64,000 bases of DNA, from contig JAXLTL010000001.1 of NCBI GenBank assembly GCA_046330075.1, positions 930,341-994,340 of the forward strand. Reading direction: 5' to 3'. The stretch comes from Bacteroidia bacterium (GTDB lineage Bacteria; Bacteroidota; Bacteroidia; AKYH767-A; OLB10). Shown in pieces: positions 3,191 through 45,091 of the stretch; within the stretch, counting starts at the first letter, position 1; each line of letters begins with the position of its first letter. Position numbers and translations under genes: made by a program. Under the pieces are notes generated by a model. That model did no database searches. It was not told where the DNA came from and saw nothing but the letters and a program-made list of their open reading frames with translations.

Positions 3191-3265
<75 letters not shown>

Positions 3266-3266
3266 A

Positions 3267-3300
3267 AAAGCCCTCCTATGCTTTAGCATCGGAGGGCTTT
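3267..3300 (+). terminator. hairpin immediately 3' of the tRNA (AAAGCCCTCC...GGAGGGCTTT)
   Basis: A 10-bp perfect stem followed by a T-containing tract. Its 3' arm is also the start of the downstream repeat unit. Confidence 0.4.
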
Positions 3301-3866
3301 GTCATTAAAAACATAGAGCGCTTGCATGCCCCGAAAGTTTTCGGGGAAGAGGTCACCGGGCGCTCTTCGCTCCGGATTGCTATCCACTAATTCTGCCCTC
3401 TGATCCTAAACTTATAGAGGGCTTTGTCATTAAAAACATAGAGCGCTTGCATGCCCCGAAAGTTTTCGGGGAAGAGGTCACCGGGCGCTCTTCGCTCCGA
3501 ATCACCATTCACTAATTCTGCCCTCCGATCCTAATCTTATTGAGGGCTTTGTCATTTATATAACATGTTTTACGTTTATTTCATTTACTCAGCACGTTTA
3601 GATCGATATTATGTCGGTTACACATCTGACCTTCAGAAGAGATTGAATGATCATAATTGTGGAATTTCTGCATTTACATCTAAGTCTAAGGACTGGGTAC
3701 TGGTGTATCAGGAAGCTTTTGAATCTCGAGAAGAGGCCGCTGAAAGAGAACGAATCATTAAAAAGAAAAAAAGCAGGAAGTATCTCGAATGGCTCATTGC
3801 AGGGAATAATTCATAGAGCGCTTGCATGCCCCGAAAGCTTTCGGGGAAGAGGTCACCCCTTCCGGC
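3294..3866 (+). repeat. tandem tRNA-Ala-derived repeats: two complete 125-bp units (3294-3418, 3419-3543) and a third unit split by the GIY-YIG ORF
   Basis: Each unit reads GGGCTTTGTCATT..CATAGAGCGCTTGCATG + hairpin CCCCGAAAG(T/C)TTTCGGGG + AAGAGGTCACCGG..ATTCTGCC. This mimics the D-stem, anticodon stem, T-arm and acceptor 3' of the adjacent tRNA-Ala, with the anticodon loop replaced by a new hairpin. Confidence 0.65.
3565..3816 (+). CDS. GIY-YIG nuclease family protein (URI domain, COG2827/UPF0213-like)
   Basis: N-terminal FYVYFIYSARLDRYYVGYTSDLQKRLNDHN matches the GIY-x10-YIG motif plus the conserved R and N. It is 83 aa. The ORF starts and stops exactly at repeat-unit junctions. Confidence 0.75.
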   Translation: MFYVYFIYSARLDRYYVGYTSDLQKRLNDHNCGISAFTSKSKDWVLVYQEAFESREEAAERERIIKKKKSRKYLEWLIAGNNS

Positions 3867-3987: not shown

Positions 3988-5511
3988 ATGGGTTACTTCC
4001 GCTACTTGTTTTTATTGATGATTTTGCTGCCGGGATCAGCAACAGCACAGTATAATGGTAATTACTGGTGTTTTGGGGATAGTGTTATGATAAATTGGAG
4101 TAACCCTAACAACCCTGTAATTGGGGCTTCTTCTTTTGATTTCCGAAACGGATCATCAAGTATTGCTGATTCTAACGGCATACTTTTATATACAGGTTAT
4201 AATTACAATGTTCAACCAGTCAGACCCTCGGTTTGGAACAAATATAATAATGATATAAATGATTCAATACGGATCAAAGGTGGCCTTTGGTATCATGCCA
4301 GTTTATTTGTACCTGATCCTGGAAATGATTCAATTATTTATTTATTTACAATTGGTGTTACTCAAGCTGAACAGTACGGTCTATACTACTCCAAAATCAA
4401 CTATAAAGCGAACAATGATTCAGGAATAGTCATTCAGAAAAATGTGCAGCTCAATAATTTTCCTGCCTTTGACGCACTCATGTCCGTGCGGCATGGTAAC
4501 GGTAGAGACTGGTGGGTGATATTTCAGAGATATACAACCAGCCTTACCCCATTTAATTCATTTTACCTTTTTCTTGTTTCGCCATCTGGTATTTCAGGTC
4601 CTGCAATTCAGAATATTGGTTCATTACGTAAAACCGGCGGCGGGCATCTGATTTTTAATAGTGATGGTACTCAATTTGTGCAATGCTCTTGGTTAGGTAT
4701 GATCGAACTCTACAATTTCGATCGCTGTACAGGTACCATCACTTCCACCATCCCTATTGAACAAGAACCATCTGTAGCTCCCTACCCACATTGGTATTCC
4801 AGCTGTGCTTTTTCACCAGATGATTCGAAATTATATGTAGCAGACTATTCGCAAACCACTTCACCATCTTATTTATGGCAATATGATTTATTAGCTACGA
4901 ATGTACCTGCGAGCAAAACCTTGATTGATTCATTTGTTGATCCTGATATGGGAATAGCGCAACTTCGCTTGGCCCCCGATAATAAAATATATTTATCAGC
5001 CTCAGATGAAGGTTTTCCATGGCCTTACCCAGATACCATCACCGCCTACACCACCATCAACAACAACCTCAGTGTTATCAACCACCCGGATAGCCTGGGT
5101 GCTGCCTGCGATTTTCAACCCTTCAGCTTTTCCCTCGGTGGTGCCCGCACCTACTACGGCCTTCCCAACAACCCCGATTACGAGTTGGGGGCTTGGGTAG
5201 GTAGTCCTTGTGATACGCTAACTGTGGGCCTCACCCCCGGCCCATCAGAGGAGAAGGGAGCATGGATGCAGGCATGGTATAACCACGAATGGAACATGAT
5301 TCACGTCAACGCGGCGCAGTTGAAAGGGAAGAAAGGTGTGTTGCGGTTGTTTGATATCGAAGGAAGAATCGTTTTCGAAAAACCGGCGGAGGTGGTGGCG
5401 GGTGGGTATTATACGACGGAGATTTATATGAATGAGTTGTCAAGTGGGGTTTATGTCGTCAACCTGGTCACGGATCGGGAGACGTTGTCGTTTAAGACTA
5501 GTAAATACTAG
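3988..5511 (+). CDS. secreted T9SS cargo protein, paralog A of a 3-member family (conserved N-terminal WCFGDS motif plus T9SS CTD)
   Basis: Signal peptide MGYFRYLFLLMILLPGSATAQ. The C-terminal ~115 aa are about 90% nucleotide-identical to 9287..10837 and 39123..40664, ending GVYVVNLVTDRETLSFKTSKY. Confidence 0.75.
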   Translation: MGYFRYLFLLMILLPGSATAQYNGNYWCFGDSVMINWSNPNNPVIGASSFDFRNGSSSIADSNGILLYTGYNYNVQPVRPSVWNKYNNDINDSIRIKGGLWYHASLFVPDPGNDSIIYLFTIGVTQAEQYGLYYSKINYKANNDSGIVIQKNVQLNNFPAFDALMSVRHGNGRDWWVIFQRYTTSLTPFNSFYLFLVSPSGISGPAIQNIGSLRKTGGGHLIFNSDGTQFVQCSWLGMIELYNFDRCTGTITSTIPIEQEPSVAPYPHWYSSCAFSPDDSKLYVADYSQTTSPSYLWQYDLLATNVPASKTLIDSFVDPDMGIAQLRLAPDNKIYLSASDEGFPWPYPDTITAYTTINNNLSVINHPDSLGAACDFQPFSFSLGGARTYYGLPNNPDYELGAWVGSPCDTLTVGLTPGPSEEKGAWMQAWYNHEWNMIHVNAAQLKGKKGVLRLFDIEGRIVFEKPAEVVAGGYYTTEIYMNELSSGVYVVNLVTDRETLSFKTSKY

Positions 5512-5536
5512 TTACAAGAGCATTTGTTGGTTTAAC

Positions 5537-5556: not shown

Positions 5557-5583
5557 CGCAGCGAAAACGGCGACTCGCAACGT

Positions 5584-7035
5584 CCCGATAGCTATCGCAT
5601 TGGCGTTAAGCTAAGCCGATTACTTTTCAACTCAAACTTCTTGATAATTAGCTTGGTATTAGAATAAAAAAGGCTTCCCCTTTGCATAATTATGTTGCGC
5701 TAACAAACTCTAACATGCGCACGGGAAGCCAAAACAAATATATGCAACATGACTTGAATTCAAAGTTAAAGTTGCTAGGTATCACAAAACTGGAGAGAGA
5801 ATTGGGTTTTAGAAAACGACGTACAGGCAAGATCAGATTGCAAGCACTTGTTGAAAGTTTTTATAAGTCATGTTTTCGGAGTAAATTTTCATTGTCAAGC
5901 TGGGCTTTTCAGTTGTCGGCTCAGGAAGGACTCTGCATTAGCAAGCAAGCTGTCTTTTACAGGGTCAATAGTTCATTAACTAAATTATTGGAAAGACTGC
6001 TCAACAATGCACTCGTTGCACAGATAAAGCCGAGCCAGACTTCACAGAATAGCAGATTTAAAAATGTATATATCCAGGATGGAATGGCAATTAAGTTGCC
6101 GGACAATTTAAGTACAAAATACAAAGGAAATTACTCGCGCGGCAAGATAAAAGCGGTAGCGAAATTGCAAGTAATTTATAATGCCAGTAAACGAAATTTT
6201 AAATCTATTCTGCTAACTCCTTTCACAAGAAATGACCAGACAGCCTCATCCGACATATTGCCGTTACTAAAGAAGGGAGATTTGGTCATACGCGATATGG
6301 GATATTTTGTAATGCCCACCTTTAGACAAATCGTACAACGTAAGGCAGACTTCATCAGTCGATATAAAAAAGATGTGGCCATAATTGATTTAAAGAGTAA
6401 GCAGGCGGTGTCAATAATACAATTATTGAGAGGAAAAACGGTTTTGAAACGAAAAGTTATTCTTGGTGCAAAAGAACAGCTTGAATGCACGTTGATAGCG
6501 GTTAAGGTAGCTCCATGTTTGGCGGAGGCAAGACGAAGAAAAGCCATGAAAGATCGTGATAAGCGACTAAGGTATACCCAGGATAAAAAAATATTGCTTG
6601 GATGGGATATTTATCTGAGTTCTTCACATGATCTGGACGTAAAAGACGTTCAAGATTATTATGCAGCTCGTTGGCAAATAGAGATCATTTTTAAGTCTTG
6701 GAAAAGTGGTTTGAGTTTAGAGAAGTCCATTCCGGGTCAACTGAATTATGATCACTTAGCGGTAACAGTTATCTATCTTCATTTGTTACTGATTGTACTT
6801 ATGATTACGCCCATATACAACACCTTGAAATCACTTATACGTAGGCCCGAAGATAGAGTAAGCCTCTTGAAATCAGTTAAAATCATCTTAATGATGATCA
6901 TTAACAATCGAATACAATTTGACTTAAATGTTGCCTCTAAATTGGCCAACTTTACTCTTTATGAAGTTAGGAACCGGGACACGATGGCAGATAAACTGAG
7001 GATTTTAGCTTAACGCTAATGCGATAGCTATCGGG
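5584..7035 (+). mobile_element. IS4/IS5-superfamily insertion sequence (~1.45 kb) with 28-bp terminal inverted repeats
   Basis: IRL 5584-5611 CCCGATAGCTATCGCATTGGCGTTAAGC and IRR 7008-7035 are reverse complements with 1 mismatch. They flank a single DDE transposase ORF. No clear target-site duplication. Confidence 0.8.
5682..7013 (+). CDS. IS4-like DDE transposase
   Basis: Motif DYYAARWQIEIIFKSWK fits the Y(2)R(3)E(6)K IS4 signature. Candidate catalytic D residues lie in YIQDGMAIKLPD and LVIRDMGYF. The stop codon lies inside IRR. Confidence 0.8.
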   Translation: MHNYVALTNSNMRTGSQNKYMQHDLNSKLKLLGITKLERELGFRKRRTGKIRLQALVESFYKSCFRSKFSLSSWAFQLSAQEGLCISKQAVFYRVNSSLTKLLERLLNNALVAQIKPSQTSQNSRFKNVYIQDGMAIKLPDNLSTKYKGNYSRGKIKAVAKLQVIYNASKRNFKSILLTPFTRNDQTASSDILPLLKKGDLVIRDMGYFVMPTFRQIVQRKADFISRYKKDVAIIDLKSKQAVSIIQLLRGKTVLKRKVILGAKEQLECTLIAVKVAPCLAEARRRKAMKDRDKRLRYTQDKKILLGWDIYLSSSHDLDVKDVQDYYAARWQIEIIFKSWKSGLSLEKSIPGQLNYDHLAVTVIYLHLLLIVLMITPIYNTLKSLIRRPEDRVSLLKSVKIILMMIINNRIQFDLNVASKLANFTLYEVRNRDTMADKLRILA

Positions 7036-7179
7036 AGCAGAGAAATCTTCATAACATTAAAAACATTTTAACCATTTAACACTTTAACTCCCGCCTTACG
7101 GGATTAACATTTATAATACTTATAACCTTCCCCCTACGGTAACCTCAGTTTAATTCAGGATTTTTCTTAAATTTGATTG

Positions 7180-9286: not shown

Positions 9287-10837
9287 ATGTTTAGAATACA
9301 AAAAATAATTTATATAATCGGGGCCCTAATCTATATTAGCCTGAAAACTCATGCGCAGTTTACGAATAACAACTGGTGTTTCGGTGATAGTGCTGGTGTT
9401 CGTTTTGATTCGGCGATAAGTATATTTCGATGTGGAACTGGCTTCACCAGAGGGACAGCAACAATTTCTGATATCAATGGGGATTTGATTTTCTATGGGG
9501 CAACCAGTAACACGACAAATGAATTTACCGGTCAAATTAAACAAGGTAAATTGTTTAATAAATACCATACTGAACTAATAAATGGTGACACTTTAGTTGG
9601 TGGCAATTGGTATCATTGTATGCTTGTTTTACCAAAATCAATAATCGACAGTACATTTTATGTATTTGTGGCTGGGGTGGTAGTACCTGACACCGGTTTA
9701 TGGTATAGCATTGTGGATATGAAATTACAGGGGGGAGTGGGTGCAGTGGTACAAAAAAATGTCAGATTTGAAACGCACCCTGTTCAGGATATGCTCACTG
9801 CCGTGAAACATGGCAATGGCAAGGATTGGTGGTTGGTAACCAGACGATGGCGTTCAAGTGGTGCCGGAATCGGGAATGATGAATTCTGGGTTTATCTTGT
9901 AGATTCAATTGGAATTCATCCATTAGCTGTACAGCATATTGGAACCTCAAATTATAATGGAGCCGGTGATATGAGTTTCAATTCTACAGGTGACAAATTG
10001 GCCTTGTGTGGCTGGGGTAATTATTTGGGTGTTTTCGACTTCGATCGATGCACCGGCCAAATCTCAAATGAAACCCTGATAGAACCGAACACCCAACTGG
10101 GCAACCACCCATACCGTTGGTACACCAGTGTTGTTTTTTCACCAAGTGGGCAATTTTTATATGTGAATTCATCGCAGGAAGCATATCAGACAAGTGGTAA
10201 ACTATATCAGTTTGATTTAACTGCCACAAATATTGCTACTAGCAGGGTATTAATTGACTCTTTTCCTACAAATGCAGAGAATCATGGAATGGAATTAGGA
10301 CCAGATGGGAAAATTTATATTAGTGCACAGGAATTTGGAGGGTGCACTTACCCATGGCCTAGTGGTTGTTTTAGCACTATAAATTCAAACCTCAGTGTAA
10401 TTAACTCTCCAGATAGCTTGGGGTCTGCATCAAACTTCCAACTATTTGCTCTTAACTTAGGAGGCTATCGTGCTTATAGGGGTCTCCCCAACAACCCCGA
10501 TTACGAGCTGGGGGCATGGGTGGGCAGTCCTTGTGATACGTTAACTGTGGGCCTCACCCCCGGCCCCTCTCCAGAGGAGAGGGGAGCCTGGCTGCAGGCA
10601 TGGTATAATCACGAATGGAATATGATCCATGTGAATGCGGCGCAGTTGAAAGGAAAGAAAGGAATGTTGAGGTTAATGGATATAGAAGGCAGAATCGTTT
10701 TCGAAAAACCGGCGGCGGTGTTGGCAGGAGGGTATTATACGACGGAGATTTACATGAATGAGTTGTCAAGTGGGGTTTATGTTGTCAACCTGGTTACGGA
10801 TAGAGAGACGTTGTCGTTTAAAACCAGTAAATTCTAG
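9287..10837 (+). CDS. secreted T9SS cargo protein, paralog B
   Basis: Signal peptide followed by NNNWCFGDSAGVRFD. Homologous along its whole length to 39123..40664(-), with a conserved 3' end ...VNLVTDRETLSFKTSKF. Confidence 0.75.
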   Translation: MFRIQKIIYIIGALIYISLKTHAQFTNNNWCFGDSAGVRFDSAISIFRCGTGFTRGTATISDINGDLIFYGATSNTTNEFTGQIKQGKLFNKYHTELINGDTLVGGNWYHCMLVLPKSIIDSTFYVFVAGVVVPDTGLWYSIVDMKLQGGVGAVVQKNVRFETHPVQDMLTAVKHGNGKDWWLVTRRWRSSGAGIGNDEFWVYLVDSIGIHPLAVQHIGTSNYNGAGDMSFNSTGDKLALCGWGNYLGVFDFDRCTGQISNETLIEPNTQLGNHPYRWYTSVVFSPSGQFLYVNSSQEAYQTSGKLYQFDLTATNIATSRVLIDSFPTNAENHGMELGPDGKIYISAQEFGGCTYPWPSGCFSTINSNLSVINSPDSLGSASNFQLFALNLGGYRAYRGLPNNPDYELGAWVGSPCDTLTVGLTPGPSPEERGAWLQAWYNHEWNMIHVNAAQLKGKKGMLRLMDIEGRIVFEKPAAVLAGGYYTTEIYMNELSSGVYVVNLVTDRETLSFKTSKF

Positions 10838-11277
10838 TTGAATTCAGAATTCAGGATGCAGAATTCAGAATTGCCCAACCTCTCGGGACACTTTTTTGAT
10901 TTTGCGATCAAACACCCAATAGAATCAAAACCTACAGGGTTGTTTTAGTTAATGAAGTCAGAGAAAAAAACGGCCCTCAGCACCGCTGGTTTTTGAAGCG
11001 CAGTGAACGGTGGAATAGACGGAGGGAAGCGGCGAATGGAATGAGCCGATCACCCGACGGCCCGCCGTACACAAGCGAAAAAAATTCCGCGATAGCGGAA
11101 AGGCGGTGGCGGTTCCTGAGCCTGTCGAAGGATGCAGGCCTTGATCTTTTTGGGTTACCCTGAAGCAGAACGAAGTACGCTTCAGGGTGACTGGGGGTTT
11201 AAGGGGACAGCGTCCCCTTGGGATGTTTAAGTATGGAGAATGCTGAATGAAATGGACAGATTTGCCGGATTGGGAGA

Positions 11278-11345
11278 ATGGGGTTTATGTTGTCAACCTG
11301 GTCACGGACAGGGAGACGTTGTCGTTTAAGACTAGTAAATTCTAG
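11278..11345 (+). pseudogene. 3'-terminal fragment of a T9SS CTD coding sequence, unit 1 copy
   Basis: Encodes ...GVYVVNLVTDRETLSFKTSKF* with no upstream gene body. About 94% identical to the 3' end of 9287..10837. Confidence 0.5.
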
Positions 11346-11775
11346 TCGAATTCAGAATTCAAGATGCAGAATTCAGAATTGCCCCCGCCCCGGAATACAA
11401 TTTTTAATTTTGCTGATTAAATAACCAATAGCAAACAAAAACCGACAGGCATTTTAATAGCAATAGAAACAAGAGAAAAAAATCGGCCCTCAGCATATCC
11501 GGTTTTTTGAGTGAAGGAAGTGGCGGAAAAGTTCGAGGGTACCCCGATAGCTATCGGGGCCGAATGAAATGAGGAGATCCCCCCTGAGAACCCGCCACGG
11601 ACAAGCTCAAAAAATTCCGCGAAAGCGGAAAGGATATGGTGCAGGCCTTGATCTTTTTGGTTACTTTTTCTATCAAGAGAAAAAGTGACCAGGGGTTTAA
11701 GGGGACAGCGTCCCCTTGGGATGTTTAAGTATGGAGAATGCTGAATGAAATGGACAGATTTGCCGGATTGGGAGA

Positions 11776-11843
11776 ATGGGGTTTATGTTGTCAACCTGGT
11801 CACGGACAGGGAGACGTTGTCGTTTAAGACCGGGAAATTCTAG
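11776..11843 (+). pseudogene. 3'-terminal fragment of a T9SS CTD coding sequence, unit 2 copy
   Basis: Same fragment ending ...SFKTGKF*. It is followed by the palindrome and 3' UTR sequence that also follows gene 3988..5511. Confidence 0.5.
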
Positions 11844-12016
11844 TTACAGCAGCATTTGTTGGTTTAAACCTGCCTGCCGGCAGGCAGGCGCAGCGAAAAC
11901 GGCGACTCGCAACGAACGCAACGGCACGGGGGAAAACATTTATATCCCTGAGGCTTCGCTCCGGGCGCAAGCGCTTCGCAACTCTGTAACTCAGTAGCTC
12001 TGTAACTCTGTAACTC

Positions 12017-16956: not shown

Positions 16957-16973
16957 TTAGGATCATTTAAAAC

Positions 16974-17007
16974 GAAAAGGGCTTCAACCGGAAGCCCTTT
17001 TCGTTTT
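16974..17007. terminator. bidirectional rho-independent terminator (AAAAGGGCTTC..GAAGCCCTTTTCGTTTT)
   Basis: An 11-bp GC-rich stem flanked by an A-tract and a T-tract, between convergent genes. Confidence 0.7.
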
Positions 17008-17021
17008 ACTGAGAGTCTGAC

Positions 17022-26915: not shown

Positions 26916-28649
26916 ATGTTTGACATCATTCAACTGAATGAAAAACATCTGCCGGAATTGAAAGATATTGCGCGCAAGATGAGTATTGAGAATTTTGACC
27001 ATCTGAAAAAGCAGGACCTCGTTTACAAGATCCTCGACCATCAGGCTCTCAATCCCGAAATCAATTTTGAAGCACTGGGCATCGAAATGCCCGAAAAGGC
27101 CGAACCTGTAAAGAAAACCCGAGCTGCATCAAAAACCCGGGAAAAAACACCGAAAACAGAAGCTGTTGCTGAAGAAAAACCAATAGCTGCTCCTGCCCCT
27201 GCCCCTGCAATGAGTGTTGCAACAACTGACAACGGTGATGGCGGCCGCCCTAAACGTCAGCGTATCATCCCGCAACGTCCCGAAGGAGAACCGGAGAAAC
27301 CAGCCGCTGTGGTTTATCAGCCACATTCTTTTGGCAATGAAAAACCGGCAAAGACAATTCAACGCGAACCGCAGGAAGAGATCAGAGCAGAACAACCTGC
27401 CGGCGAACCGGCTCCACGTCCTGCCGTTCAGGAGCAACCACGAATACCAGCCTATCCACAGCAACGGGAAATGCCACAGCGTGAGATGCCCAATCGCGAA
27501 CGCCGCATTGGCAATGCTGAGCCCGCATTTGATTTTGGCAATGCCATCGTAGCAGAAGGAGTACTGGAATTAATGCCGGAAGGTGTTGGATTCCTTCGCT
27601 CATCCGACTACAACTATCTGCCTTCTCCCGATGATATCATGGTAACCCCCGTACAGATCAAACAATATGGTCTGAAACCGGGAGATACCGTTAAATGTTC
27701 GGTAAGGCCTCCCCGTGAGGGCGAAAAATATTTTCCGCTGGTGCGCATCGAGCTCATCAACGGACTTGCTCCGGAAGTAGTGCGCGACCGTGTGCCCTTC
27801 GACTTCCTGACACCGCTTTTTGCCCACGAAAAGTTCAACCTGATTTACGGGATGGGAAATTACTCCACCCGTGTGATGGACATGTTCACACCGATTGGCA
27901 AAGGCCAGCGCGGTCTCATCGTTGCGCAGCCAAAAACGGGTAAAACTGTATTGCTGAAGGAAGTGGCCAATGCCATCGCCGCCAACCATCCTGAAGTGTA
28001 TCTGATCATCCTCCTCATCGACGAACGTCCGGAAGAGGTAACGGATATGGCCCGCAGCGTACGTGCAGAAGTAGTATCATCAACGTTCGATGAACCGGCT
28101 GACCGTCACGTGAAGATTGCCAATATCGTTCTTGAAAAAGCAAAACGACTTGTAGAATGCGGACACGATGTCTGCATCCTCCTCGACTCCATCACCCGTC
28201 TGGCCCGTGCCTACAATACCGTTGCTCCTGCATCCGGTAAAGTACTCTCCGGTGGTGTGGAAGCCAATGCACTCCAGAAACCAAAGCGTTTCTTCGGAGC
28301 AGCCCGTAAAATTGAAAACGGAGGTTCACTCACCATCCTCGCAACAGCATTGATTGATACCGGATCTAAAATGGACGAGGTGATCTTCGAGGAATTCAAA
28401 GGAACCGGTAACATGGAATTGCAACTCGACCGTAAGCTGGCCAACAAACGTATTTTCCCGGCTATCGATCTGGTTGCATCCAGTACCCGTCGTGATGATC
28501 TTCTGCTGGATCGGGAGATGTTGCAGAAGATGTGGATTCTCCGCAATCACCTCGCCGATATGAATCCGATGGAAGCGATGGAATTCCTCCTCGACCGCAT
28601 GAGGGGAACAAAATCGAACGAAGAGTTTCTGGTATCGATGAACTCATAA
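26916..28649 (+). CDS. rho: transcription termination factor Rho with a Bacteroidota-type N-terminal low-complexity insertion
   Basis: RNA-binding domain ([14 protein letters not shown]...) with cold-shock-like fold motifs. ATPase Walker A AQPKTGKT and Walker [16 protein letters not shown]-loop/Q-loop regions. About 150 aa of P/E/A-rich insertion after residue ~50. Confidence 0.9.
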
Positions 28650-28658
28650 AAAAAAGGA

Positions 28659-28983
28659 GCCTGAGCGTAGCCGATACCCGCACCCTTCGGTTACGCTCAG
28701 GGTCCGGGTATTTTGGATTAAAAAAATACGCTCAGGGTCCGGGTATTTTGGATTGAAAAAAAATAATACGCTCAGGGTCCGGGTATATTAGATAAAAAAA
28801 ATAATACGCTCAGGGTCCGGGTATTTTGGATTAAAAAAAATACGCTCAGGGTCCGGGTATTTTGGATTAAAAAAAATACGCTCAGGGTCCGGGTATATTA
28901 GATAAAAAAAATAATACGCTCAGGGTCCGGGAATTTTGGATTGAAAAAAAAATAATACGCTCAGGGTCCGGGTATTTTGGATA
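28659..28983. repeat. tandem array of 8 copies of a ~28-bp unit TACGCTCAGGGTCCGGGTATTTTGGAT(T) separated by A-runs, preceded by a partly complementary segment
   Basis: Copies start at about 28692, 28727, 28767, 28805, 28841, 28877, 28915 and 28956. The leading segment CCTGAGCGTA..GATACCCG is complementary to parts of each unit. Lies between convergent rho and the Mur ligase gene. Confidence 0.8.
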
Positions 28984-29016
28984 GAAGAAAAAAATATTTC
29001 AATCCAATAACAACTA

Positions 29017-30381
29017 TTATTTTTCCGCCAGCATCTTTCCAAATGCATTGAGATCGATGCCATCGAAATTTCCGGAGCTCATCAGCAAGAGCACATCTTT
29101 TTTGTAGTGCTGATTTTCGAGAAAGGCGCGAACATCGGCAGAGGCATTCATGACAATCAGATCATCGCGGCCGAAGGCTTTCTTCACTTGTTCTGTTGAT
29201 ATAGCCTCGAGTTTTTTATGTGCAATGGTATGCGGATTAAAATATACCACTGCCACATCTGCCAGTTTCATCGCATCCCTGTACTCATCGAGGAAGGCTG
29301 CATTCAAACTGGAAAACGTATGTAACTCCATGCAGGCCACCAGGCGGCGCTCAGAAAATTGTGTCTTCACCGCGTCCGTCGTTGCTTTTAACTTAGAAGG
29401 TGAATGCGCGAAATCCTTGAACACGATGAGTTTTTCAGAACGGGCAATGAGTTCGAGTCGCCGTGCCGCACCCTTGAAAGAACCAATGGCTTCGTAAAAC
29501 TGCTGATCACTGATACCGGCTTCATTACACATCATCCTTGCACCTTCGAGATTCATCAGGTTATGGGTTCCAAAGATCTGCAATGACACATCCCCCAGCG
29601 ATGTCTCGAGGATAGTAGTACCATCAATGATCCGGTGCTGCGGAATGCCGTATGGCGATTTTGTCTTCACCGGCGCAGCCGCTTCGCAAACCTTCTTCAC
29701 TTCCGGATCTTCTATGCAATAGATCAAGCGTCCGTTTTCAGGTATGCCGTTCACGTAAATCCGGAATTGCTCCACGTAATTATCAAACGTCGGAAACACA
29801 TTGATATGATCCCAGGCAATGCCACTCAACAATGCAACATCAGCTTTGTAGAGATGGAATTTCGGGCGACGGTCAATTGGTGAAGAAAGATATTCGTCTC
29901 CTTCCAGAATAATCAGCGGTGCTGTTTCAGAAAGACGAACCATCCGTTCAAATCCTTCCAGCTGCGAACCTACCATGTAATCAAAATCCACATGATGAAA
30001 GTTCAACACATGCAGAATCATGGCGGTGATGCTGGTTTTTCCATGACTTCCGCCAACTACAAAACGACGTTTGTTTTTCGATTGCTCGTAGAGATACTCT
30101 GGGTATGAAAAAACAGGAATACCCAGCTCTTTCGCCCGCAGCAACTCAGGGTTCTCTGCTCTTGCATGCATGCCAAGAATGACGGCATTGAGCCCGCTGT
30201 GGATCCTCTCCGGAAACCAACCCATTTCCGAAGGCAGCAATCCGGCTTTCTCCAGTCTGCTCCGCGAAGGCTCGTTGATCTCATCATCTGATCCGGTAAC
30301 CACATATCCTTTATGCTGCAAAGCAAGAGCGAGATTATGCATCGCCGCTCCGCCAATCGCAATAAAATGAACGTTCATCAT
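29017..30381 (-). CDS. Mur ligase family protein (Mpl/MurC-like UDP-N-acetylmuramate-peptide ligase)
   Basis: HFIAIGGAAMHNLALAL...VTGSDD N-terminal Rossmann motif. GSHGKTSITAMI P-loop. Mur ligase central and C-terminal domains. Confidence 0.75.
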   Translation of the reverse strand: MMNVHFIAIGGAAMHNLALALQHKGYVVTGSDDEINEPSRSRLEKAGLLPSEMGWFPERIHSGLNAVILGMHARAENPELLRAKELGIPVFSYPEYLYEQSKNKRRFVVGGSHGKTSITAMILHVLNFHHVDFDYMVGSQLEGFERMVRLSETAPLIILEGDEYLSSPIDRRPKFHLYKADVALLSGIAWDHINVFPTFDNYVEQFRIYVNGIPENGRLIYCIEDPEVKKVCEAAAPVKTKSPYGIPQHRIIDGTTILETSLGDVSLQIFGTHNLMNLEGARMMCNEAGISDQQFYEAIGSFKGAARRLELIARSEKLIVFKDFAHSPSKLKATTDAVKTQFSERRLVACMELHTFSSLNAAFLDEYRDAMKLADVAVVYFNPHTIAHKKLEAISTEQVKKAFGRDDLIVMNASADVRAFLENQHYKKDVLLLMSSGNFDGIDLNAFGKMLAEK

Positions 30382-30489: not shown

Positions 30490-30645
30490 ACAAAGGCATT
30501 CACCAATTTCCCCCGAGGCTCGCTCCTCACTTGAGCCTTGCGGCCTGAGGCCTGCAGCCATCGAGGCAAGCATGCGGCTTGAGGCCTGCAGCCATTGAGG
30601 CCTTCGGCATCCCGCATTGCGAAGCAATGACGGGACACCAATTTC
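30490..30645. repeat. ~140-bp intergenic element bounded by 12-bp direct repeats CACCAATTTCCC, with internal GAGGCCTGCAGCCAT(C/T)GAGGC duplications
   Basis: Direct repeats at 30492-30503 and 30634-30645. Internal 21-bp duplication and hairpin potential. Confidence 0.3.
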
Positions 30646-34708: not shown

Positions 34709-36580
34709 ATGAACATCTTCACCGCCGAGAGCATCTCCAAAGCTTATAACGAGAAACCGCTTTTTACGAAGATTGATATATCGCTGGGAGAAAACCAGAA
34801 GATGGCGCTGATAGCAGCCAATGGCAGCGGCAAAACCACACTGATGCGGATGCTGGCCGGCAAAGAAGTGCCGGACGAAGGCAAGATATCTTTCCGTAAC
34901 GACTTACGTGTGGGCTACCTCGAACAGGACCCGTATTTCCATCCGGAATCAACCGTGATGGATTGTATCTTCGAACCCGGCCATCCCATTCTGCATGCAA
35001 TTGGAGAATACGAACGTTTACTCGACGAAGGCGAAATCGACCAGTCGAAGCTGCAGATCGTGATGGACACCATCGACTCGCTCAATGGCTGGGACTATGA
35101 AGCGAGAGCGGCGGAGGTGCTTGGAAAACTGGGAATCCATCATCTTGAAAAACCAACTGCGCAACTCAGCGGCGGACAGAAAAAACGCATTGCCCTGGCC
35201 CGTTTACTGATCGAAGACTTCGACTTTCTTCTCCTCGACGAACCTACCAACCATCTCGATCTGGATATGATTGAATGGCTGGAGCAATATCTGAAGAGGC
35301 AAAACAAACCACTGGTGCTGATTTCGCACGACCGGTATTTTCTCGATAACGTATGTAACTACATCGTAGAGCTCGAGAACAACAAAGTGTACAACTACAA
35401 CGGCAACTACGCGTATTATCTCGAGAAAAAAGAAGAACGCGAAGCACAGGAACGGGCGAGCATTGATAAAGCCAGAAATTTATACCGTCGTGAACTCGAC
35501 TGGATGCGCCGACAGCCCAAAGCCCGCACTACGAAATCGAAGTCGAGGCAGGATGCTTTTTATGATGTAGAAGAAGAAGCAAAAGGAAAACGCACCGAAG
35601 CCCGGATGCAGATTACGATGCAGATGAATCGCCTCGGCAGTAAAATTCTTGAGCTGGAAAATATCTGCAAAGCTTACGATGGCCGCCAGTTACTGAAAGA
35701 CTTCTCCTACACCTTCAAACGTGGCGAAAAAATCGGACTGATCGGCAGAAACGGAGCCGGCAAATCGACACTGCTCAACATTATCATGGAACTGGTAAAG
35801 CCTGATCAGGGTCGTGTGAAATCAGGCGAGACCGTGGTGTATGGCTACTATTCGCAGCAGGGCATGCAGTTGCCGGAGGATAAACGTGTGATTGAAGTCG
35901 TGAAAGATATTGCAGAATACGTGGAAACCGGCAATGGAAACTGGATGGGTGTTTCGCAGTTCCTGAATCACTTTCAGTTCACCGGGCCCAAGCAACATGC
36001 CTTTGTCAGCAAACTCAGCGGAGGAGAAAAGAAACGATTGTATTTGCTTACCATTCTGCTGAAAAACCCGAACTTCCTCATTCTTGACGAGCCCACCAAT
36101 GATCTTGACATCGTTACCCTGAACATCCTTGAAGAGTTCCTCGAAGGCTATCAGGGATGTTTGTTAATGGTAACGCACGACCGTTATTTCATGGACCGGC
36201 TGGTGGATCATGTGTTCGTACTGGATGGAAATGGAGGTGTAAAAGACATTCACGGCAACTACACAGAATACCGTGAGAACTTTGGAAGTCTGACGCCAAC
36301 TAAGGAAGAAAAGAAAGAAACTGTCTCAAAAAAAGAAGAACCTGCAGCTCCTGTCCGGAAAAAAGGCAAACTCAGCTTCAAGGAACAAAAAGAACTCGAA
36401 CAAATCGAGAAGGAGATCTCCGATCTGGAGGAGAAAAAGAAGATCCTGGTGGATAAAATGAACTCGGGCTTATCGCACACCGAAATGCAGCAATGTTCGG
36501 ATGAATTCGAAAAATGCAATAATGCACTCGATGAAAAATCGATGCGATGGCTTGAATTGCAGGAACTGCTGGAGGGATGA
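34709..36580 (+). CDS. ABC-F family ATPase (two tandem ABC domains, no TMD; translation-factor type)
   Basis: Two Walker A motifs (GANGSGKTT, GRNGAGKST). Two LSGGQ/LSGGE signatures. Inter-domain linker. C-terminal coiled-coil. Confidence 0.85.
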   Translation: MNIFTAESISKAYNEKPLFTKIDISLGENQKMALIAANGSGKTTLMRMLAGKEVPDEGKISFRNDLRVGYLEQDPYFHPESTVMDCIFEPGHPILHAIGEYERLLDEGEIDQSKLQIVMDTIDSLNGWDYEARAAEVLGKLGIHHLEKPTAQLSGGQKKRIALARLLIEDFDFLLLDEPTNHLDLDMIEWLEQYLKRQNKPLVLISHDRYFLDNVCNYIVELENNKVYNYNGNYAYYLEKKEEREAQERASIDKARNLYRRELDWMRRQPKARTTKSKSRQDAFYDVEEEAKGKRTEARMQITMQMNRLGSKILELENICKAYDGRQLLKDFSYTFKRGEKIGLIGRNGAGKSTLLNIIMELVKPDQGRVKSGETVVYGYYSQQGMQLPEDKRVIEVVKDIAEYVETGNGNWMGVSQFLNHFQFTGPKQHAFVSKLSGGEKKRLYLLTILLKNPNFLILDEPTNDLDIVTLNILEEFLEGYQGCLLMVTHDRYFMDRLVDHVFVLDGNGGVKDIHGNYTEYRENFGSLTPTKEEKKETVSKKEEPAAPVRKKGKLSFKEQKELEQIEKEISDLEEKKKILVDKMNSGLSHTEMQQCSDEFEKCNNALDEKSMRWLELQELLEG

Positions 36581-36596
36581 ATCAGGCTGCAAGGCG

Positions 36597-36665
36597 CTTG
36601 CGTCCCGAGCGAAGCCTCAGGGCTAAAAGGCGCTTGCGTCCTGAGCGAAGCCTCAGGGCTTCAGG
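36597..36665 (+). repeat. two tandem copies of a 33-bp element AAGGCGCTTGCGTCC(C/T)GAGCGAAGCCTCAGGGCT, also present inverted at 11941-11973
   Basis: Direct sequence comparison shows 2 mismatches against the reverse complement of 11941-11973. Confidence 0.45.
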
Positions 36666-36715
36666 CTACAGTCCCGCAGCGAGCTGCGGGAGCAGGCTAC
36701 AAGTCTGCATAACTA

Positions 36716-36976
36716 TCGTCCCACCTATCAATCACATCCCCCATATCATCACCCCTATCAATCAAATCCTCCCATATCATCACCCCTATCAATCACATCC
36801 CCCATATCATCACCCCTATCAATCAAATCCCCCCATATCATCACCCCTACCAATCACATCCCCCATATCATCACCCCTATCAATCACATCCCCCATATCA
36901 TCACCCCTATCAATCACATCCCCCATATCATCACCCCCTATCAATCACATCCCCCATATCATCACCCACTTCAATC
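36716..36976 (+). repeat. 30-bp minisatellite (about 9 copies of CATCACCCCTATCAATCACATCCCCCATAT)
   Basis: Head-to-tail copies with point variants. The overlapping ORF 36577..36981 is a translation artefact. Confidence 0.8.
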
Positions 36977-37018
36977 TGTAGCAACCCCCTATTAACTGGA
37001 GAGATTCTATGATTTTCA

Positions 37019-38038
37019 TTAGTAGTGCTGTCCATGGCTTTGGTCAACTGTTATGCAAAGGTAGGCATCGGCTGCGGGCTTGTCAAGGCTCATGCCGAGC
37101 GGTTGATTTGTCGGTTTTGATACAGCGGTATCAACCGGCCTTGACAAGCCATCATCCGCTGCAAAGGTGCTCTGCATAAGAGTTGACAAAGCCATTCCTT
37201 GATCCCATTTTTGCTGAGGCGTAATGCGGCCCAGATTTTTATGCTTTCGTTTATTATTATACCAATGCATGTAATCTTCAATATGCTTCTTAGCTTCATA
37301 ATAACTTAGAAATTGATATCGGCAATATAATTCCCTCTGTTGGATGCTGTGGAAGGATTCAATATAGGCGTTTTCTTCGGGTGTAGCAACGTGGGTAAAC
37401 TCTTGACGCGCTTCCATTTCTTGTAATGTGCGTCTGACTTCATTAGCCAGGAACTGCGAACCATTGTCATTGCGGATAATTACGCCCTTTAAATCATATT
37501 TAAGATGCAGATACCGGAACATATCTATCACATCCTTTTTTCGTACACTGGACTGGAATATCCAGTGAATGATCTTTCGGCTGTATATATCCATAATCGA
37601 CAGCTGATAATACCATCTGCTTTCTCCGTGCACCCAGACATACTTGATATCAAGACATAAATACTCCATTGGGCGGGAGGCTTCGACCTTGCGATACTGA
37701 ACCCTCTCTCTCTTGCCCTTTGTCCGGATAACTTTCCCCAATAGCAACTTTTCTTCATCCATGATCCGGTACACTTTTTTATCGTCAATCCAATATCCCA
37801 TTTCCCGAAGCTCTGCCGTCACATTCTGATAGCCATATGCATTGTAAGGTCCCAGAATAATGCCTTTGATCTCCGCTACGACTTGTTGATTCTCTACCAA
37901 CTCATTCTTGAAGAGTGTATGCGTACTCGGCTTTCGGCCCGGTTTACCCTCTGTGGGCTTGTAGTAATAGGAGCTGGAGGGAATTCCTAGCCACTTCATC
38001 AGATCCGTTGTGCTCGCCTTACCTATATACGCCTGCAT
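37019..38038 (-). CDS. IS3 family transposase OrfB (rve integrase core; expressed as OrfAB by -1 frameshift)
   Basis: DDE integrase core. HWYNNKRKHKNLGRITPQQ C-terminal motif typical of IS3/IS150. The -1 frame is open back to the A_AAA_AAA site. Confidence 0.8.
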   Translation of the reverse strand: MQAYIGKASTTDLMKWLGIPSSSYYYKPTEGKPGRKPSTHTLFKNELVENQQVVAEIKGIILGPYNAYGYQNVTAELREMGYWIDDKKVYRIMDEEKLLLGKVIRTKGKRERVQYRKVEASRPMEYLCLDIKYVWVHGESRWYYQLSIMDIYSRKIIHWIFQSSVRKKDVIDMFRYLHLKYDLKGVIIRNDNGSQFLANEVRRTLQEMEARQEFTHVATPEENAYIESFHSIQQRELYCRYQFLSYYEAKKHIEDYMHWYNNKRKHKNLGRITPQQKWDQGMALSTLMQSTFAADDGLSRPVDTAVSKPTNQPLGMSLDKPAADAYLCITVDQSHGQHY

Positions 38039-38944: not shown

Positions 38945-39122
38945 TATTTTTCTCTATCGTTGTCATTTTCTGGCTGTAGCAGGTTTTAAAAGTTGTAAGG
39001 GTTATAAATGTTATAAATGTTAAAATGTTATCCGCCGTCCGGCGGAGAGTTATGAGAATTTCCCCGCGCTCTCCGCGTAACCGCCGCGCTCTCCGCGTTT
39101 AAAACGAAAGATGATCCGGTAA

Positions 39123-40664
39123 CTAGAATTTACTGGTCTTAAACGACAACGTCTCCCGATCTGTGACCAGGTTGACCACATAAACCCCCTCCGAAATTTC
39201 ATTCATATAAATCTCCGACGTATAATAACCTCCCGCCAATACTTCCATCTGTTTTTCGAAAACGATTCTGCCTTCGATATCCAGCAACCGCAACACCCCT
39301 TTCTTCCCCTTCAACTGCGCAGCATTCACATGAATCATATTCCATTCATGGTTATACCACGCCTGCATCCACGATGCCTCCGGTGTTGGGCCGGGGATGA
39401 GGCCCACAGTTAACGTATCACAGGGACTACCCACCCAGGCGCCCAGCTCGTAATCGGGATTGTTGGGGAGGCCGTAGTAGGTGCGGGCACCGCCGAGGGA
39501 AAAACTGAAGGGTTGAAAATCACAGGCGAGACCAAGGGAATCGGGTTGGTTGATGACGGAGAGGTTTTCGTTGATATAATTCCAGCAGGTAGAAGGATAC
39601 GGAAAGCCGGAGCCTGGACCAGCATAAACACAACTGATGTAAATTTTACCATCCGGTGCCAGCTCCATTCCACCGGGAGTTGCTTCAATTGGAAATGAGT
39701 CTAGTAACACTCTTGAGTTGGGAATATTTGACGCGTTCAAATCAAACTGGTAAATTTTGCTGTTTAGATTATAGATGTCCTGTGCAGAAGTAACATATAG
39801 TTTATTGCCGTCTTCTGAAAATACCGCATCCATATATAGTTTGAACAGGCTTCCTGGAGGCGCATATTGTTCAATTACTGTTTCATTTGAAATCAATCCG
39901 GAACATCTGTCAAAATCAAATACTCCAAGATAACTGCCAAGTCCGGCTAATACTATTCTATCACCTGAATGATTGAAGCTTATATCACCACCATTATCAA
40001 AATGCGAAGTTCCTACAAATTGAGTGGGCAATGGATGTATACCTACTGAGTCTACCAGATACACCCAGAATTCATTGTTCTTTACATACCCCGGCGCATA
40101 GGTCCATCTGCGTGTTACCAGCCACCAGTCCTTTCCATTTCCATGACGTACTGCAGCCAGCATATCTTGCACGGGATGTGTTTCAAATCGGAAATTCTTT
40201 TGCACCACCTGACCTAAACCTCCCTGCAATTTCATGTCCACAATATTTACCCATAAGCCCGTATCGGGATAAACAACTCCGGCCACAAACACATAAAAGG
40301 TGCTGTCCGTAACCGACTTTGGGAGAACGAGCATATCATGATACCATTCACCTCCAACTAAGGTGTCACCATTAAATAACTTTTGATGTAGTTTATTAAA
40401 AAGTTTACCTATCCTTAATAGACTACTATTAGAGTTTGTTGAGTTGCCGGTTGCACCATAAAACAGCAGATTGCCTTGTACATCAGAAATAGAAGAAGTT
40501 CCTCGAAAAAAGCCACTCCCACTTTTGAAAAAGGCAATACCATTATCGAAATTAATTCCAGCACTATCACCAAACACCCAATTATTATTCCTGAATTGAG
40601 CATATGTTTTCAACTGACAGAACGATATCAGTATTAACAGCCAGATAATGTTTCGACTCATCAT
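39123..40664 (-). CDS. secreted T9SS cargo protein, paralog C
   Basis: MMSRNIIWLLILISFCQLKTYAQFRNNNWVFGDSAGINFD N-terminus. Full-length homology to 9287..10837. The same near-identical CTD. Confidence 0.75.
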   Translation of the reverse strand: MMSRNIIWLLILISFCQLKTYAQFRNNNWVFGDSAGINFDNGIAFFKSGSGFFRGTSSISDVQGNLLFYGATGNSTNSNSSLLRIGKLFNKLHQKLFNGDTLVGGEWYHDMLVLPKSVTDSTFYVFVAGVVYPDTGLWVNIVDMKLQGGLGQVVQKNFRFETHPVQDMLAAVRHGNGKDWWLVTRRWTYAPGYVKNNEFWVYLVDSVGIHPLPTQFVGTSHFDNGGDISFNHSGDRIVLAGLGSYLGVFDFDRCSGLISNETVIEQYAPPGSLFKLYMDAVFSEDGNKLYVTSAQDIYNLNSKIYQFDLNASNIPNSRVLLDSFPIEATPGGMELAPDGKIYISCVYAGPGSGFPYPSTCWNYINENLSVINQPDSLGLACDFQPFSFSLGGARTYYGLPNNPDYELGAWVGSPCDTLTVGLIPGPTPEASWMQAWYNHEWNMIHVNAAQLKGKKGVLRLLDIEGRIVFEKQMEVLAGGYYTSEIYMNEISEGVYVVNLVTDRETLSFKTSKF

Positions 40665-44982: not shown

Positions 44983-45000
44983 CACAAGTAACAGAACACA

Positions 45001-45033
45001 AAAGCCCGGAGAATCCTCCGGGCTTTTTAATTT
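45001..45033 (+). terminator. rho-independent terminator (AAAGCCCGGAGAATCCTCCGGGCTTTTTAATTTT)
   Basis: 9-bp GC stem and a T-tract immediately after the AsmA-like stop. Confidence 0.8.
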
Positions 45034-45091
45034 TCTTCCTGAATAGTTGAATTGCCTTGCTAAATATTATATCTTGCAACGCGCGTTGAAA

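Follow-up and report, generated by a model that had tools for sequence, protein, structure and literature searches.

A strain-variable tandem repeat between the convergent rho and mpl genes of a Bacteroidia bacterium, probably grown from a terminator palindrome

The gap between the convergent genes rho and mpl in the window (the whole stretch of DNA that was analyzed, 64 kb in length) holds a tandem array of eight nearly identical units. This array is probably a young, unstable minisatellite, that is, a variable-number tandem repeat, which grew from a palindromic terminator common to the two genes. The evidence comes from the make-up of the units, each of which repeats part of one arm of a hairpin at the rho stop codon, from the different copy numbers in genomes of the same species, and from relatives in which the gap contains only a simple hairpin. 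Any specific role of the array for rho is unsupported. The observation is of modest weight: it would be a clean case of the birth of a minisatellite from one arm of a terminator palindrome, and it is datable because the relatives keep the ancestral state and the copy number still changes within the species. No new mode of regulation of the termination factor gene emerges from it.

Organization of the rho-mpl gap

The Rho protein encoded in the window is 100% identical to NCBI MFN8153446.1 ("MAG: Bacteroidia bacterium"). For the Mur ligase encoded on the opposite strand, an exact look-up of the protein gave no match, and close homologues carry the JGI name UDP-N-acetylmuramate:L-alanyl-gamma-D-glutamyl-meso-diaminopimelate ligase (Mpl). 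The gene order around rho and mpl is kept in the relatives that were fetched, and the neighbors are conserved housekeeping genes. An initial annotation of this DNA had placed an eight-copy repeat right after rho and before the convergent Mur ligase gene. This description was correct, with eight cores at 28692–28975 and both genes identified by Pfam (Table 1). The repeat had also been described as filling the whole gap, which is true for the leader, the array and the 20-nt right flank together, which span 367 bp, but not for the array alone.

Table 1. Positions of the rho-mpl gap features, the flanking genes, and other repeats and terminators in the window
Feature	Position	Strand	Description
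rho gene	26916–28649	+	577 aa; Rho_N, Rho_RNA_bind and ATPase domains (Pfam)
rho stop codon	28647–28649	+	TAA; read from the sequence
A8 run	28648–28655	.	Overlaps the rho stop codon; on the minus strand, U8 tract directly after the hairpin
Hairpin H1	28656–28705	.	5' arm GGAgCCTGAGCGTAGCCGA (28656–28674); loop TACCCGCACCCT (28675–28686); 3' arm TCGGTTACGCTCAGGgTCC (28687–28705)
Alternative hairpin H2	28674–28711	+	ATACCCGcACCCT, loop TCGGTTACGCTC (12 nt), AGGGTcCGGGTAT, then TTTTGG; −16.9 kcal/mol
Tandem array	28692–28996	+	Eight head-to-tail units of 35–41 bp; eighth core ends at 28975 (Tandem Repeats Finder, sequence)
Right flank	28997–29016	.	Unique, 20 nt (TTTCAATCC...); common to the L004 gap
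Mur ligase gene	29017–30381	−	mpl-type, convergent to rho (Pfam)
tRNA-fragment repeats	3292–3541		
~508-bp × 3 tandem repeat	10679–11844		
16-bp × 3.5 repeat	30546–30603		
36-bp doublet	36585–36656		Inverted copy at 11940–11980
30-bp × 8.3 array	36724–36976		Adjoins an IS3-family transposase
Bidirectional terminator	16968–17008		Other example in the window
Bidirectional terminator	44987–45040		Other example in the window

Each unit is composed of an invariant 20-nt core, TACGCTCAGGGTCCGGGTAT, followed by 8–9 nt and an A-run (A7–A9, with or without TAA). A search of the 64-kb window for the core with at most one mismatch returned eight copies, all in the rho-mpl gap, and the chance expectation from shuffles of the window was 0. 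The core is exact in seven of the eight units, and unit 7, which has GGGAAT, accounts for the one change in 160 nt. The units start at positions 28692, 28727, 28767, 28805, 28841, 28877, 28915 and 28956, with successive periods of 35, 40, 38, 36, 36, 38 and 41 nt. The initially reported 28-bp unit and its A7–12 separators therefore have to be replaced by a period of 35–41 bp and by A-runs of A7–A9, some with TAA after them. Tandem Repeats Finder reported a period of 36 with 8.1 copies for the array and, in addition, a higher-order period of 110 bp. The tails of the units are of the types TTTGGATT plus A7–8, TTTGGATTG plus A8–9 plus TAA, and ATTAGATA plus A8 plus TAA, and the succession of spacer types along the array is a, b, c, a, a, c, b', end. 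The units thus vary mostly in the length of the A-run and in a three-unit higher-order repeat. Together, the 110-bp period and the order of the tails indicate a probable duplication of a three-unit block, plus homopolymer slippage.

Each unit also holds a short inverted repeat, AAAATAC...GTATTTT, and the plus strand of the array contains 74 G versus 40 C, so that RNA from the minus strand has a C:G ratio of about 1.9. A CRISPR array was considered and rejected, as the "spacers" are near-identical A-rich tails of 15–21 nt. The near-invariance of the core compared with the varying spacers may be a sign of constraint, but the counts are low, and the youth of the array explains the pattern equally well.

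Leader, hairpins and predicted termination

The array is preceded by a GC-rich leader of 36–42 nt, GGAGCCTGAGCGTAGCCGATACCCGCACCCTTCGGT, which ends at 28691 and which, after the A8 run, is composed of GGAG, CCTGAGCGTA, GCCG, ATACCCG and CACCCTTCGGT (28656–28691). The initial annotation had noted that two halves of this leader are complementary to two separate parts of the unit. Indeed, CCTGAGCGTA (28660–28669) is the exact reverse complement of TACGCTCAGG in the core, and ATACCCG (28674–28680) is that of CGGGTAT, also in the core. The summed complementary run of 17 nt was reached by none of 2,000 shuffles of the leader (maximum 16), and the complementarity extends further than had been noted, forming the hairpin H1. 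H1 consists of two inverted 19-mers and the 12 nt between them, which form the loop; the stem has 18 pairs, including one G-U pair, and a single G/G mismatch, and the energy is −35.5 kcal/mol on the plus strand (RNA energy evaluation). Unit 1 has a double role, being also the outer 14 nt (28692–28705) of the 3' arm of H1, and each unit corresponds to a portion of this arm together with the downstream sequence as far as an A-run.

On the minus strand, the stem of H1 (about −30 kcal/mol in context) is directly followed by UUUUUUUU, that is, U8, which is complementary to the A8 run. The sequence after the stem on the plus strand, GGGUAUUUUGG, is a poor U-tract, with only UAUUUUGG 6 nt past the stem. 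The combination of stem and U-tract that characterizes an intrinsic terminator is thus found on the minus strand, for mpl, and not on the plus strand, for rho. Most likely, H1 is the bidirectional terminator of the gap, as predicted from its fold, and on the minus strand it has the canonical form (stem plus U8) that would terminate mpl transcripts. A terminator scanner detected none in the gap; its loop limit is 8 nt, compared with the 12 nt of the H1 loop.

The alternative hairpin H2 overlaps H1, and the two are mutually exclusive. When the gap is folded as a whole, the minimum-energy structure has the 5' arm of the leader paired with unit 2 and enclosing H2, an option that only the repetition of the 3' arm provides. 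Of the A-B...A'-B' arrangement that had been proposed for leader and units, two overlapping alternative hairpins (−35.5 and −16.9 kcal/mol) are retained, whereas a pseudoknot is sterically implausible. In H-type pseudoknots, the loops must be long enough to span the stems. Here only 3 nt (GTC) join A' to B' and would have to cross a stem of 10–15 bp, and an H-type pseudoknot was rejected on this geometry.

Compared with shuffled sequences, the fold of the gap has a z-score of −3.9 on the plus strand and of −1.9 on the minus strand, which is barely more stable than the shuffles. The folding energy of single units is −2.9 to −5.1 kcal/mol, whichever strand is folded, and the pairs are mostly A-U; on these values, the idea that each unit is a mini-terminator was discarded. 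A sigma-70 scan of the gap gave one weak sigma-70-like site only, and the Bacteroidetes −7 motif TAnnTTTG does not occur in 28600–29100; that each unit is a tiny sRNA gene was dropped on these two results. A search of the gap against Rfam 15 at a permissive E-value gave a best score of 19.9 bits versus a cutoff of 50, with all E-values at or above 0.4, and the sole hit in the whole window at the gathering score was a tRNA.

Variation within the species

Three other public assemblies (L001, L014 and L015) show the array or a break inside it, and the array is not an artefact of one assembly. L001 is 99.98% identical to the window over 4.8 kb, and its contig breaks in unit 1. L014, which is 99.25% identical over 4.5 kb and spans the region from the mpl stop to the rho stop, has four units (a, b, b', end) after the same leader. 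The third of them reads GGGTAT in place of the GGGAAT in the b' unit of the window, and the leader of L014 is preceded by A7, not A8. L015 is 99.4% identical and ends in the array, where an A8 spacer directly before the GGGAAT unit forms a junction that is absent from the window. Since L014 and L015 each hold array 31-mers that the window lacks, at least three alleles of the array appear to be present in genomes with an identity of 99.25% or more, the relatives being short-read assemblies in which repeats may be collapsed. L014 in particular is a short-read assembly (its contig is named k141_...) and possibly partly collapsed; yet its third unit differs, and L015 independently has a different junction.

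The initial annotation had recommended a comparison of copy numbers across related strains, and the result, eight units in the window versus four in L014 and a new junction in L015, argues for a hypervariable minisatellite. Of the three conspecific contigs, all from short reads, two stop within the array. The locus thus breaks short-read assemblies, and strain typing in this uncultured lineage of Bacteroidia could make use of it.

Relatives without an array

Arrays were found in none of the relatives that share the gene order and have gaps of 42–167 bp (L005–L007, L009–L011, L013 and L016). L006 and L007 (Rho 85% identical) have a gap of 66 bp with AAAAAAAAGGCCGCATGAAAATGCGGCTTTTTTTT at the rho stop, and in L005 (86%) the gap of 44 bp contains a perfect palindrome. 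The gaps of L013 (85%), L009 (82%), and L010 and L011 (both 80%) have lengths of 57 bp, 42 bp and 66 bp, respectively. In L016, in which Mpl is 93% identical, the gap is 167 bp long and has AAAAAAACAAAAGCCCCGAGgtttCTCGGGGCTTTTGTTTTTTT at the rho stop. The layout of TAAAAAAAA plus a hairpin, as it is present at the rho stop of the window, is found also in L006, L007 and L016. A further contig, in which the partial Rho (P0077) is 97% identical, has a gap of 44 nt, as read from gene calls alone, and in L012 (79%) the gap is enlarged by an inserted ParE toxin cassette.

The ancestral and usual state would thus be a plain, probably bidirectional terminator with an A-run overlapping the rho stop codon, and H1 lies in that very position. 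On the sequences compared, the array is confined to one species-level lineage and is variable within it.

A second array at the homologous locus

One further species has an array of its own. In L004, Rho is 90% identical at the protein level, the nucleotide identity to the window is about 77–80%, and the gap of 338 bp contains five copies of a unit of about 37 bp (CGGTCCCCGAGCGGAGTCGAGGGGATCAGAACATTAT). The rho stop is directly followed by a hairpin (TTCCGGCCCC/TCGACTCCGCTC/GGGGaCCGGAA, −17.8 kcal/mol). Perfect reverse complementarity to this hairpin extends over 21–27 nt in the four full-length units and over 15 nt in the first unit, which is truncated. An inverted repeat of 32 nt (31/32 positions matching), made of the leader and the last unit, brackets the whole gap. 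No clear target duplication was seen beside these terminal inverted repeats, and the window has only the short arms of H1. The leader hairpin of L004, CCCCTCGACTCCGCTCGGGGACCGG, is identical at 19 of 25 positions to the H2 region of the window and has the same relative position (shuffle p about 0.01), and the right flanks of both gaps share GAAGAAAA..TATTTCAATCC.

The units of L004 are in the orientation of the 5' arm of the window, and the units of the window are in the orientation of the 3' arm. From these comparisons, it looks as if one ancestral palindromic segment had been amplified twice independently, on opposite strands in the two species. Alignments of arm against unit between the window and L004 gave p-values of about 0.03–0.11, which are not significant alone, and only the hairpin segment aligns. 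Because these statistics are weak, an origin of both arrays from the same ancestral element is plausible, with common descent not proven.

The presence of an array at the homologous locus of L004 is not predicted by simple neutral slippage. It suggests a locus-specific or palindrome-specific bias of amplification, or some selected benefit. In its strongest form, the suggestion is that two species of about 78% identity independently amplified opposite orientations of TCGRYTMCGCTCRGGGWCCGG (eight versus five units, and 0 in the intermediate relatives), either by an amplification process directed at the arms of the palindrome, such as template switching at the hairpin, a hairpin-binding enzyme or a REPIN-like system in uncultured Bacteroidia, or because a long spacer or insulator between the convergent genes was selected. 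We regard this as a speculative and rather doubtful proposal. If the recurrence has a specific mechanism, REP/REPIN-like biology would extend to a phylum in which little of it has been described.

Searches for further copies and other repeats in the window

Neither the core nor H1 has a second copy in the 64-kb window, and none was found outside the rho-mpl gap in about 80 kb of related loci. Scans of GTDB representative genomes and JGI metagenomes with exact 19-mers detected no arrays; each collection gave one single-copy match (L002 and L003), both inside coding sequences and judged to be chance. BLAST searches of plasmids and phages with the leader and three units gave no match. The initial annotation had considered that the unit might be a dispersed genome-wide repeat, and such dispersal was seen neither in the 64-kb window nor in the public genome, metagenome, plasmid and phage collections.

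A 13-nt motif of the leader arm, CCYGAGCGNAGYC, has seven hits in the window versus 0.8 expected, a pattern that was derived from the leader itself. The hits include an unrelated repeat family at 36604, 36640 and 11952, with which the similarity stops at 13 nt. The enrichment hints at a loose family of palindrome cores.

The window contains several other repeats (Table 1). Among the neighbors of the rho-mpl locus and a small number of further ORFs that were scanned, the transposases detected were of the DDE and IS3 types and are far from this locus. Thus, tandem amplification in intergenic regions is a habit of this genome and not special to rho, and the many other intergenic repeats in the window weaken a specific link of the array to rho.

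Origin of the array and alternative explanations

Of the three options that had been offered initially, a hypervariable minisatellite is the only one that gained support, from the eight versus four units and the novel junction at a flank identity of at least 99.25% and from the relatives that lack an array. Ancestrally, a GC-rich hairpin would have stood between an A-run over the rho stop codon and a T-rich tail, as is still the case in relatives. A segment of 35–41 bp, from inside the 3' arm of H1 to the next A-run, would then have been duplicated and amplified, presumably by slipped-strand mispairing or unequal recombination, with one duplication of a three-unit block. Near-identical units, variation in the A-runs and a three-unit repeat are as expected for slippage and unequal exchange. 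The complementarity of the leader would be a leftover of the 5' arm (segment A) and the loop (segment B) of the old hairpin system; because the units derive from a hairpin arm, selection is not needed to explain it. H1 and U8 most likely still terminate mpl transcripts on the minus strand after the array has been crossed, and on the plus strand H1 may cap rho transcripts, acting either as a terminator whose U-tract is weak or as a hairpin at the 3' end. For the array, the most likely role is that of a near-neutral passenger, with each copy changing the length of the 3' untranslated region of mpl by about 37 nt.

A different origin would be a cluster of a mobile palindromic element of the REP/REPIN or MITE type, in which H1 is a doublet of inverted 19-nt elements, one of which has been reiterated in tandem with its flank to give the array, perhaps by a transposase that recognizes the hairpin. 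The two inverted 19-mers with 12 nt between them fit this idea, as do the MITE-like outline of the 338-bp gap of L004 with its bracketing inverted repeat, the amplification of opposite orientations of a homologous segment in two species, and the enrichment of CCYGAGCGNAGYC in the window, which, however, partly reflects a pattern derived from the leader. Yet the unit and H1 lack a second copy in the 64 kb and in the related loci, and a terminal unpaired GTAG or CGTC tag was not found, the GTAG at 28666–28669 being inside the H1 stem, where it pairs with TTAC (one G-T). Furthermore, no Y1-transposase gene is near the locus, where housekeeping genes are in the same order as in the relatives. We thus consider a mobile element unlikely. 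The proposal that the gap is a functional RNA device in the 3' untranslated region of rho, in which termination, readthrough or mRNA stability is adjusted by an H1/H2 switch and seven extra decoys of the 3' arm, assigns a function to the repeats. It draws on the overlap of H1 and H2, which resembles an antiterminator/terminator pair, with UUUUGG after H2, on the plus-strand z-score of −3.9 and the pairing of the leader 5' arm with unit 2 around H2, and on the 21–27 nt of perfect complementarity between leader and full-length units that L004 also keeps. However, a negative z-score is expected for a tandem repeat that holds its own complement, and the origin of the units from a hairpin arm fully explains the complementarity. 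As transcription proceeds, H1 is the first of the two hairpins to form, and its stability exceeds that of H2 by 18 kcal/mol. Rfam gave no match for the gap, and the device is unconserved, with simple terminators without an array in close relatives and a variable copy number among conspecifics. An RNA device is therefore quite improbable. The related suggestion of a multi-site terminator or attenuator for rho fared no better, given units of only −3 to −5 kcal/mol, H1 as the sole strong structure with its U-tract on the opposite strand, and no conservation beyond one species.

The array might also insulate convergent transcription, if its C-rich, G-poor and weakly structured minus strand were a Rho loading (rut-like) region that, together with H1 and U8, stops mpl antisense transcription into rho. 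The C:G ratio of about 1.9 and the minus-strand z-score of only −1.9 agree with this, and E. coli REP elements between convergent genes are described as partly Rho-dependent terminators and stabilizers (bioRxiv 10.64898/2026.03.23.713779). The basis is compositional only, however, H1 and U8 would suffice, as in the relatives without an array, and the copy number is unconstrained, which makes an insulator highly improbable. Finally, one inverted site in the leader and several direct 20-bp sites recall iterons paired with an inverted repeat, and each unit has a short inverted repeat, so that the gap might be an iteron- or centromere-like array of binding sites at the DNA level, as was also suggested initially. 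The irregular spacing of 35–41 bp lacks helical phasing, no partition or replication gene is nearby, and the array is absent from relatives and variable within the species; we give a protein-binding array almost no weight.

Comparison with known systems

The array resembles bacterial minisatellites or VNTRs in having near-identical units of tens of bp head to tail in an intergenic region, a strain-variable copy number and a block duplication. Indeed, it has the head-to-tail units of 10–100 bp and the polymorphic copy number and order by which such loci are recognized, the polymorphism being read from relatives with short-read assemblies. The MIRU-VNTR loci of Mycobacterium tuberculosis are a dispersed family of about 40 loci. 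Here, in contrast, a single locus with the unit was seen, and the local terminator hairpin is visibly its source.

With canonical bidirectional intrinsic terminators, the gap shares an A-run, a GC-rich stem-loop and a U-run at the stop codon, and the orthologous loci of relatives have the same arrangement. It differs from them by the 12-nt loop and the 18-bp stem, which is larger than usual, by the decayed U-tract on the plus strand, and by the eight-fold amplification of the 3' arm. The pneumococcal BOX elements, with the structure boxA-(boxB)n-boxC, occur in more than 100 dispersed copies per genome. They are also intergenic and also carry tandem modules of about 45 bp, in varying number, between complementary end modules that form a stable stem. 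However, the sequences are unrelated, BOX is dispersed, and in the rho-mpl gap the repeated module is one arm of the stem.

In the REP/BIME clusters of enterobacteria and the tandem REPIN clusters of Pseudomonas, an element is reiterated in tandem with flanking DNA (PMC3116915, PMC3733652), and the terminal GTAG or CGTC tag of REP/REPIN is not base-paired (PMC3733652). Roles of REP elements as terminators and mRNA stabilizers are described in the bioRxiv report cited above. Similarities to these clusters are the palindromes at the 3' ends of genes, often between convergent genes, the inverted doublets that form long hairpins, and the variation of number and position between strains. The differences are that no dispersal was detected here within 64 kb, that neither an unpaired GTAG or CGTC tag nor, close to the locus, an associated RAYT gene was seen, and that one inverted and eight direct copies are present rather than alternating ones. 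Taken together, the array is probably a variable tandem repeat derived from a terminator or a REP-like palindrome, and the mildly surprising point is the independent array of L004 from the homologous hairpin.

Repeats and mobile elements elsewhere in the window

In addition to the array between rho and mpl, the window contains another eight-copy array, which consists of C-rich 30-bp units (CCTATCAATCACATCCCCCATATCATCACC, 8.3 copies) and lies between an ABC-F-type ATPase gene and an IS3-family transposase. The 134-aa ORF that spans this array had no match in Pfam and may be spurious. Another element, about 34 nt long (GGCGCTTGCGTCCYGAGCGAAGCCTCAGGG), is dispersed in the window, with one tandem pair and a single inverted copy; it includes the GCGAAGC mini-hairpin motif and has a 13-nt motif (CCYGAGCGNAGCC) in common with the rho leader arm, that is, the 5' arm of hairpin H1.

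Longer repeats were found as well. The copies of a repeat of about 508 bp take in the 3' end of a gene whose Pfam match, to the type IX secretion C-terminal sorting domain, is weak and sub-threshold, and paralogous C-terminal regions are also present at 5246-5513 and 39099-39379. The 125-bp units that follow a tRNA gene, two in tandem and a partial third, contain pieces of this tRNA (TAGAGCGCTTGCATG...AGAGGTCACCGG), split by a CCCCGAAAGTTTTCGGGG hairpin, and between the copies lies a small gene for a GIY-YIG nuclease (Pfam E = 1e-18). This arrangement may be the scar of a homing or mobile element. The window also harbors an intact insertion sequence, with inverted repeats of 32 nt (97% complementary, TCCCGATAGCTATCGCATTGGCGTTAAGCTAA) on either side of its transposase.

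Repeats, mobile elements and associated genes in the window
Feature	Position	Strand	Location
tRNA gene	3191-3264
125-bp units, two in tandem	3292-3541		after tRNA gene
GIY-YIG gene	3565-3816
125-bp unit, partial third copy	3812-3857
Insertion sequence	5583-7036
DDE_Tnp_1 transposase	5682-7013		within insertion sequence
Gene with sorting-domain match	9287-10837
~508-bp repeat, three tandem copies	10679-11844
GAATTCA x 4.7, two places	10840-10872; 11348-11380		interleaved with ~508-bp copies
~34-nt element, single inverted copy	11940-11980	-	24.6 kb from tandem pair
Octamer AACTCTGT x 4.6	11980-12016		interleaved with ~508-bp copies
16-bp repeat x 3.5	30546-30603		divergent gap, mpl/metallo-beta-lactamase-fold gene
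ABC-F-type ATPase gene	34709-36580
134-aa ORF	36577-36981
~34-nt element, two tandem copies	36585-36656	+	after ABC-F gene
30-bp array	36724-36976
IS3-family transposase	37019-38038
orfA of IS3-family transposase	38044-38355

Matches and orthologous spacers in other genomes

The only public matches to the exact 19-mer of the rho-mpl array unit, in an Anaerolineae MAG (L002, 3108-3126) and a metagenome contig (L003, 2737-2755), lie within coding sequence in a nearly identical context (...CACGTGCACGCTCAGGGTCCGGGTATC...). They were rejected as relatives of the array, being chance or codon-level matches unrelated to it.

The gap between mpl and the divergent metallo-beta-lactamase-fold gene contains tandem repeats both in the window and in the relative L004, where the orthologous gap (6633-6686) carries a 16/24-bp repeat unrelated to the 16-bp repeat of the window. 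Therefore, repeat turnover in this lineage is not confined to a single spacer. In the relative L012 (79% Rho identity), the rho-mpl gap itself has gained a cassette of two genes that includes a ParE-family toxin (3998-4536), and the gap is thus a hot spot for insertions of more than one kind. In L004, no target-site duplication was recognised at this gap (4750-5087). With a 32-nt inverted repeat at both ends of the entire gap (31 of the 32 positions match) and an internal perfect palindrome (GGCCGATAGCTATCGGCC), the L004 gap is MITE-like in outline.
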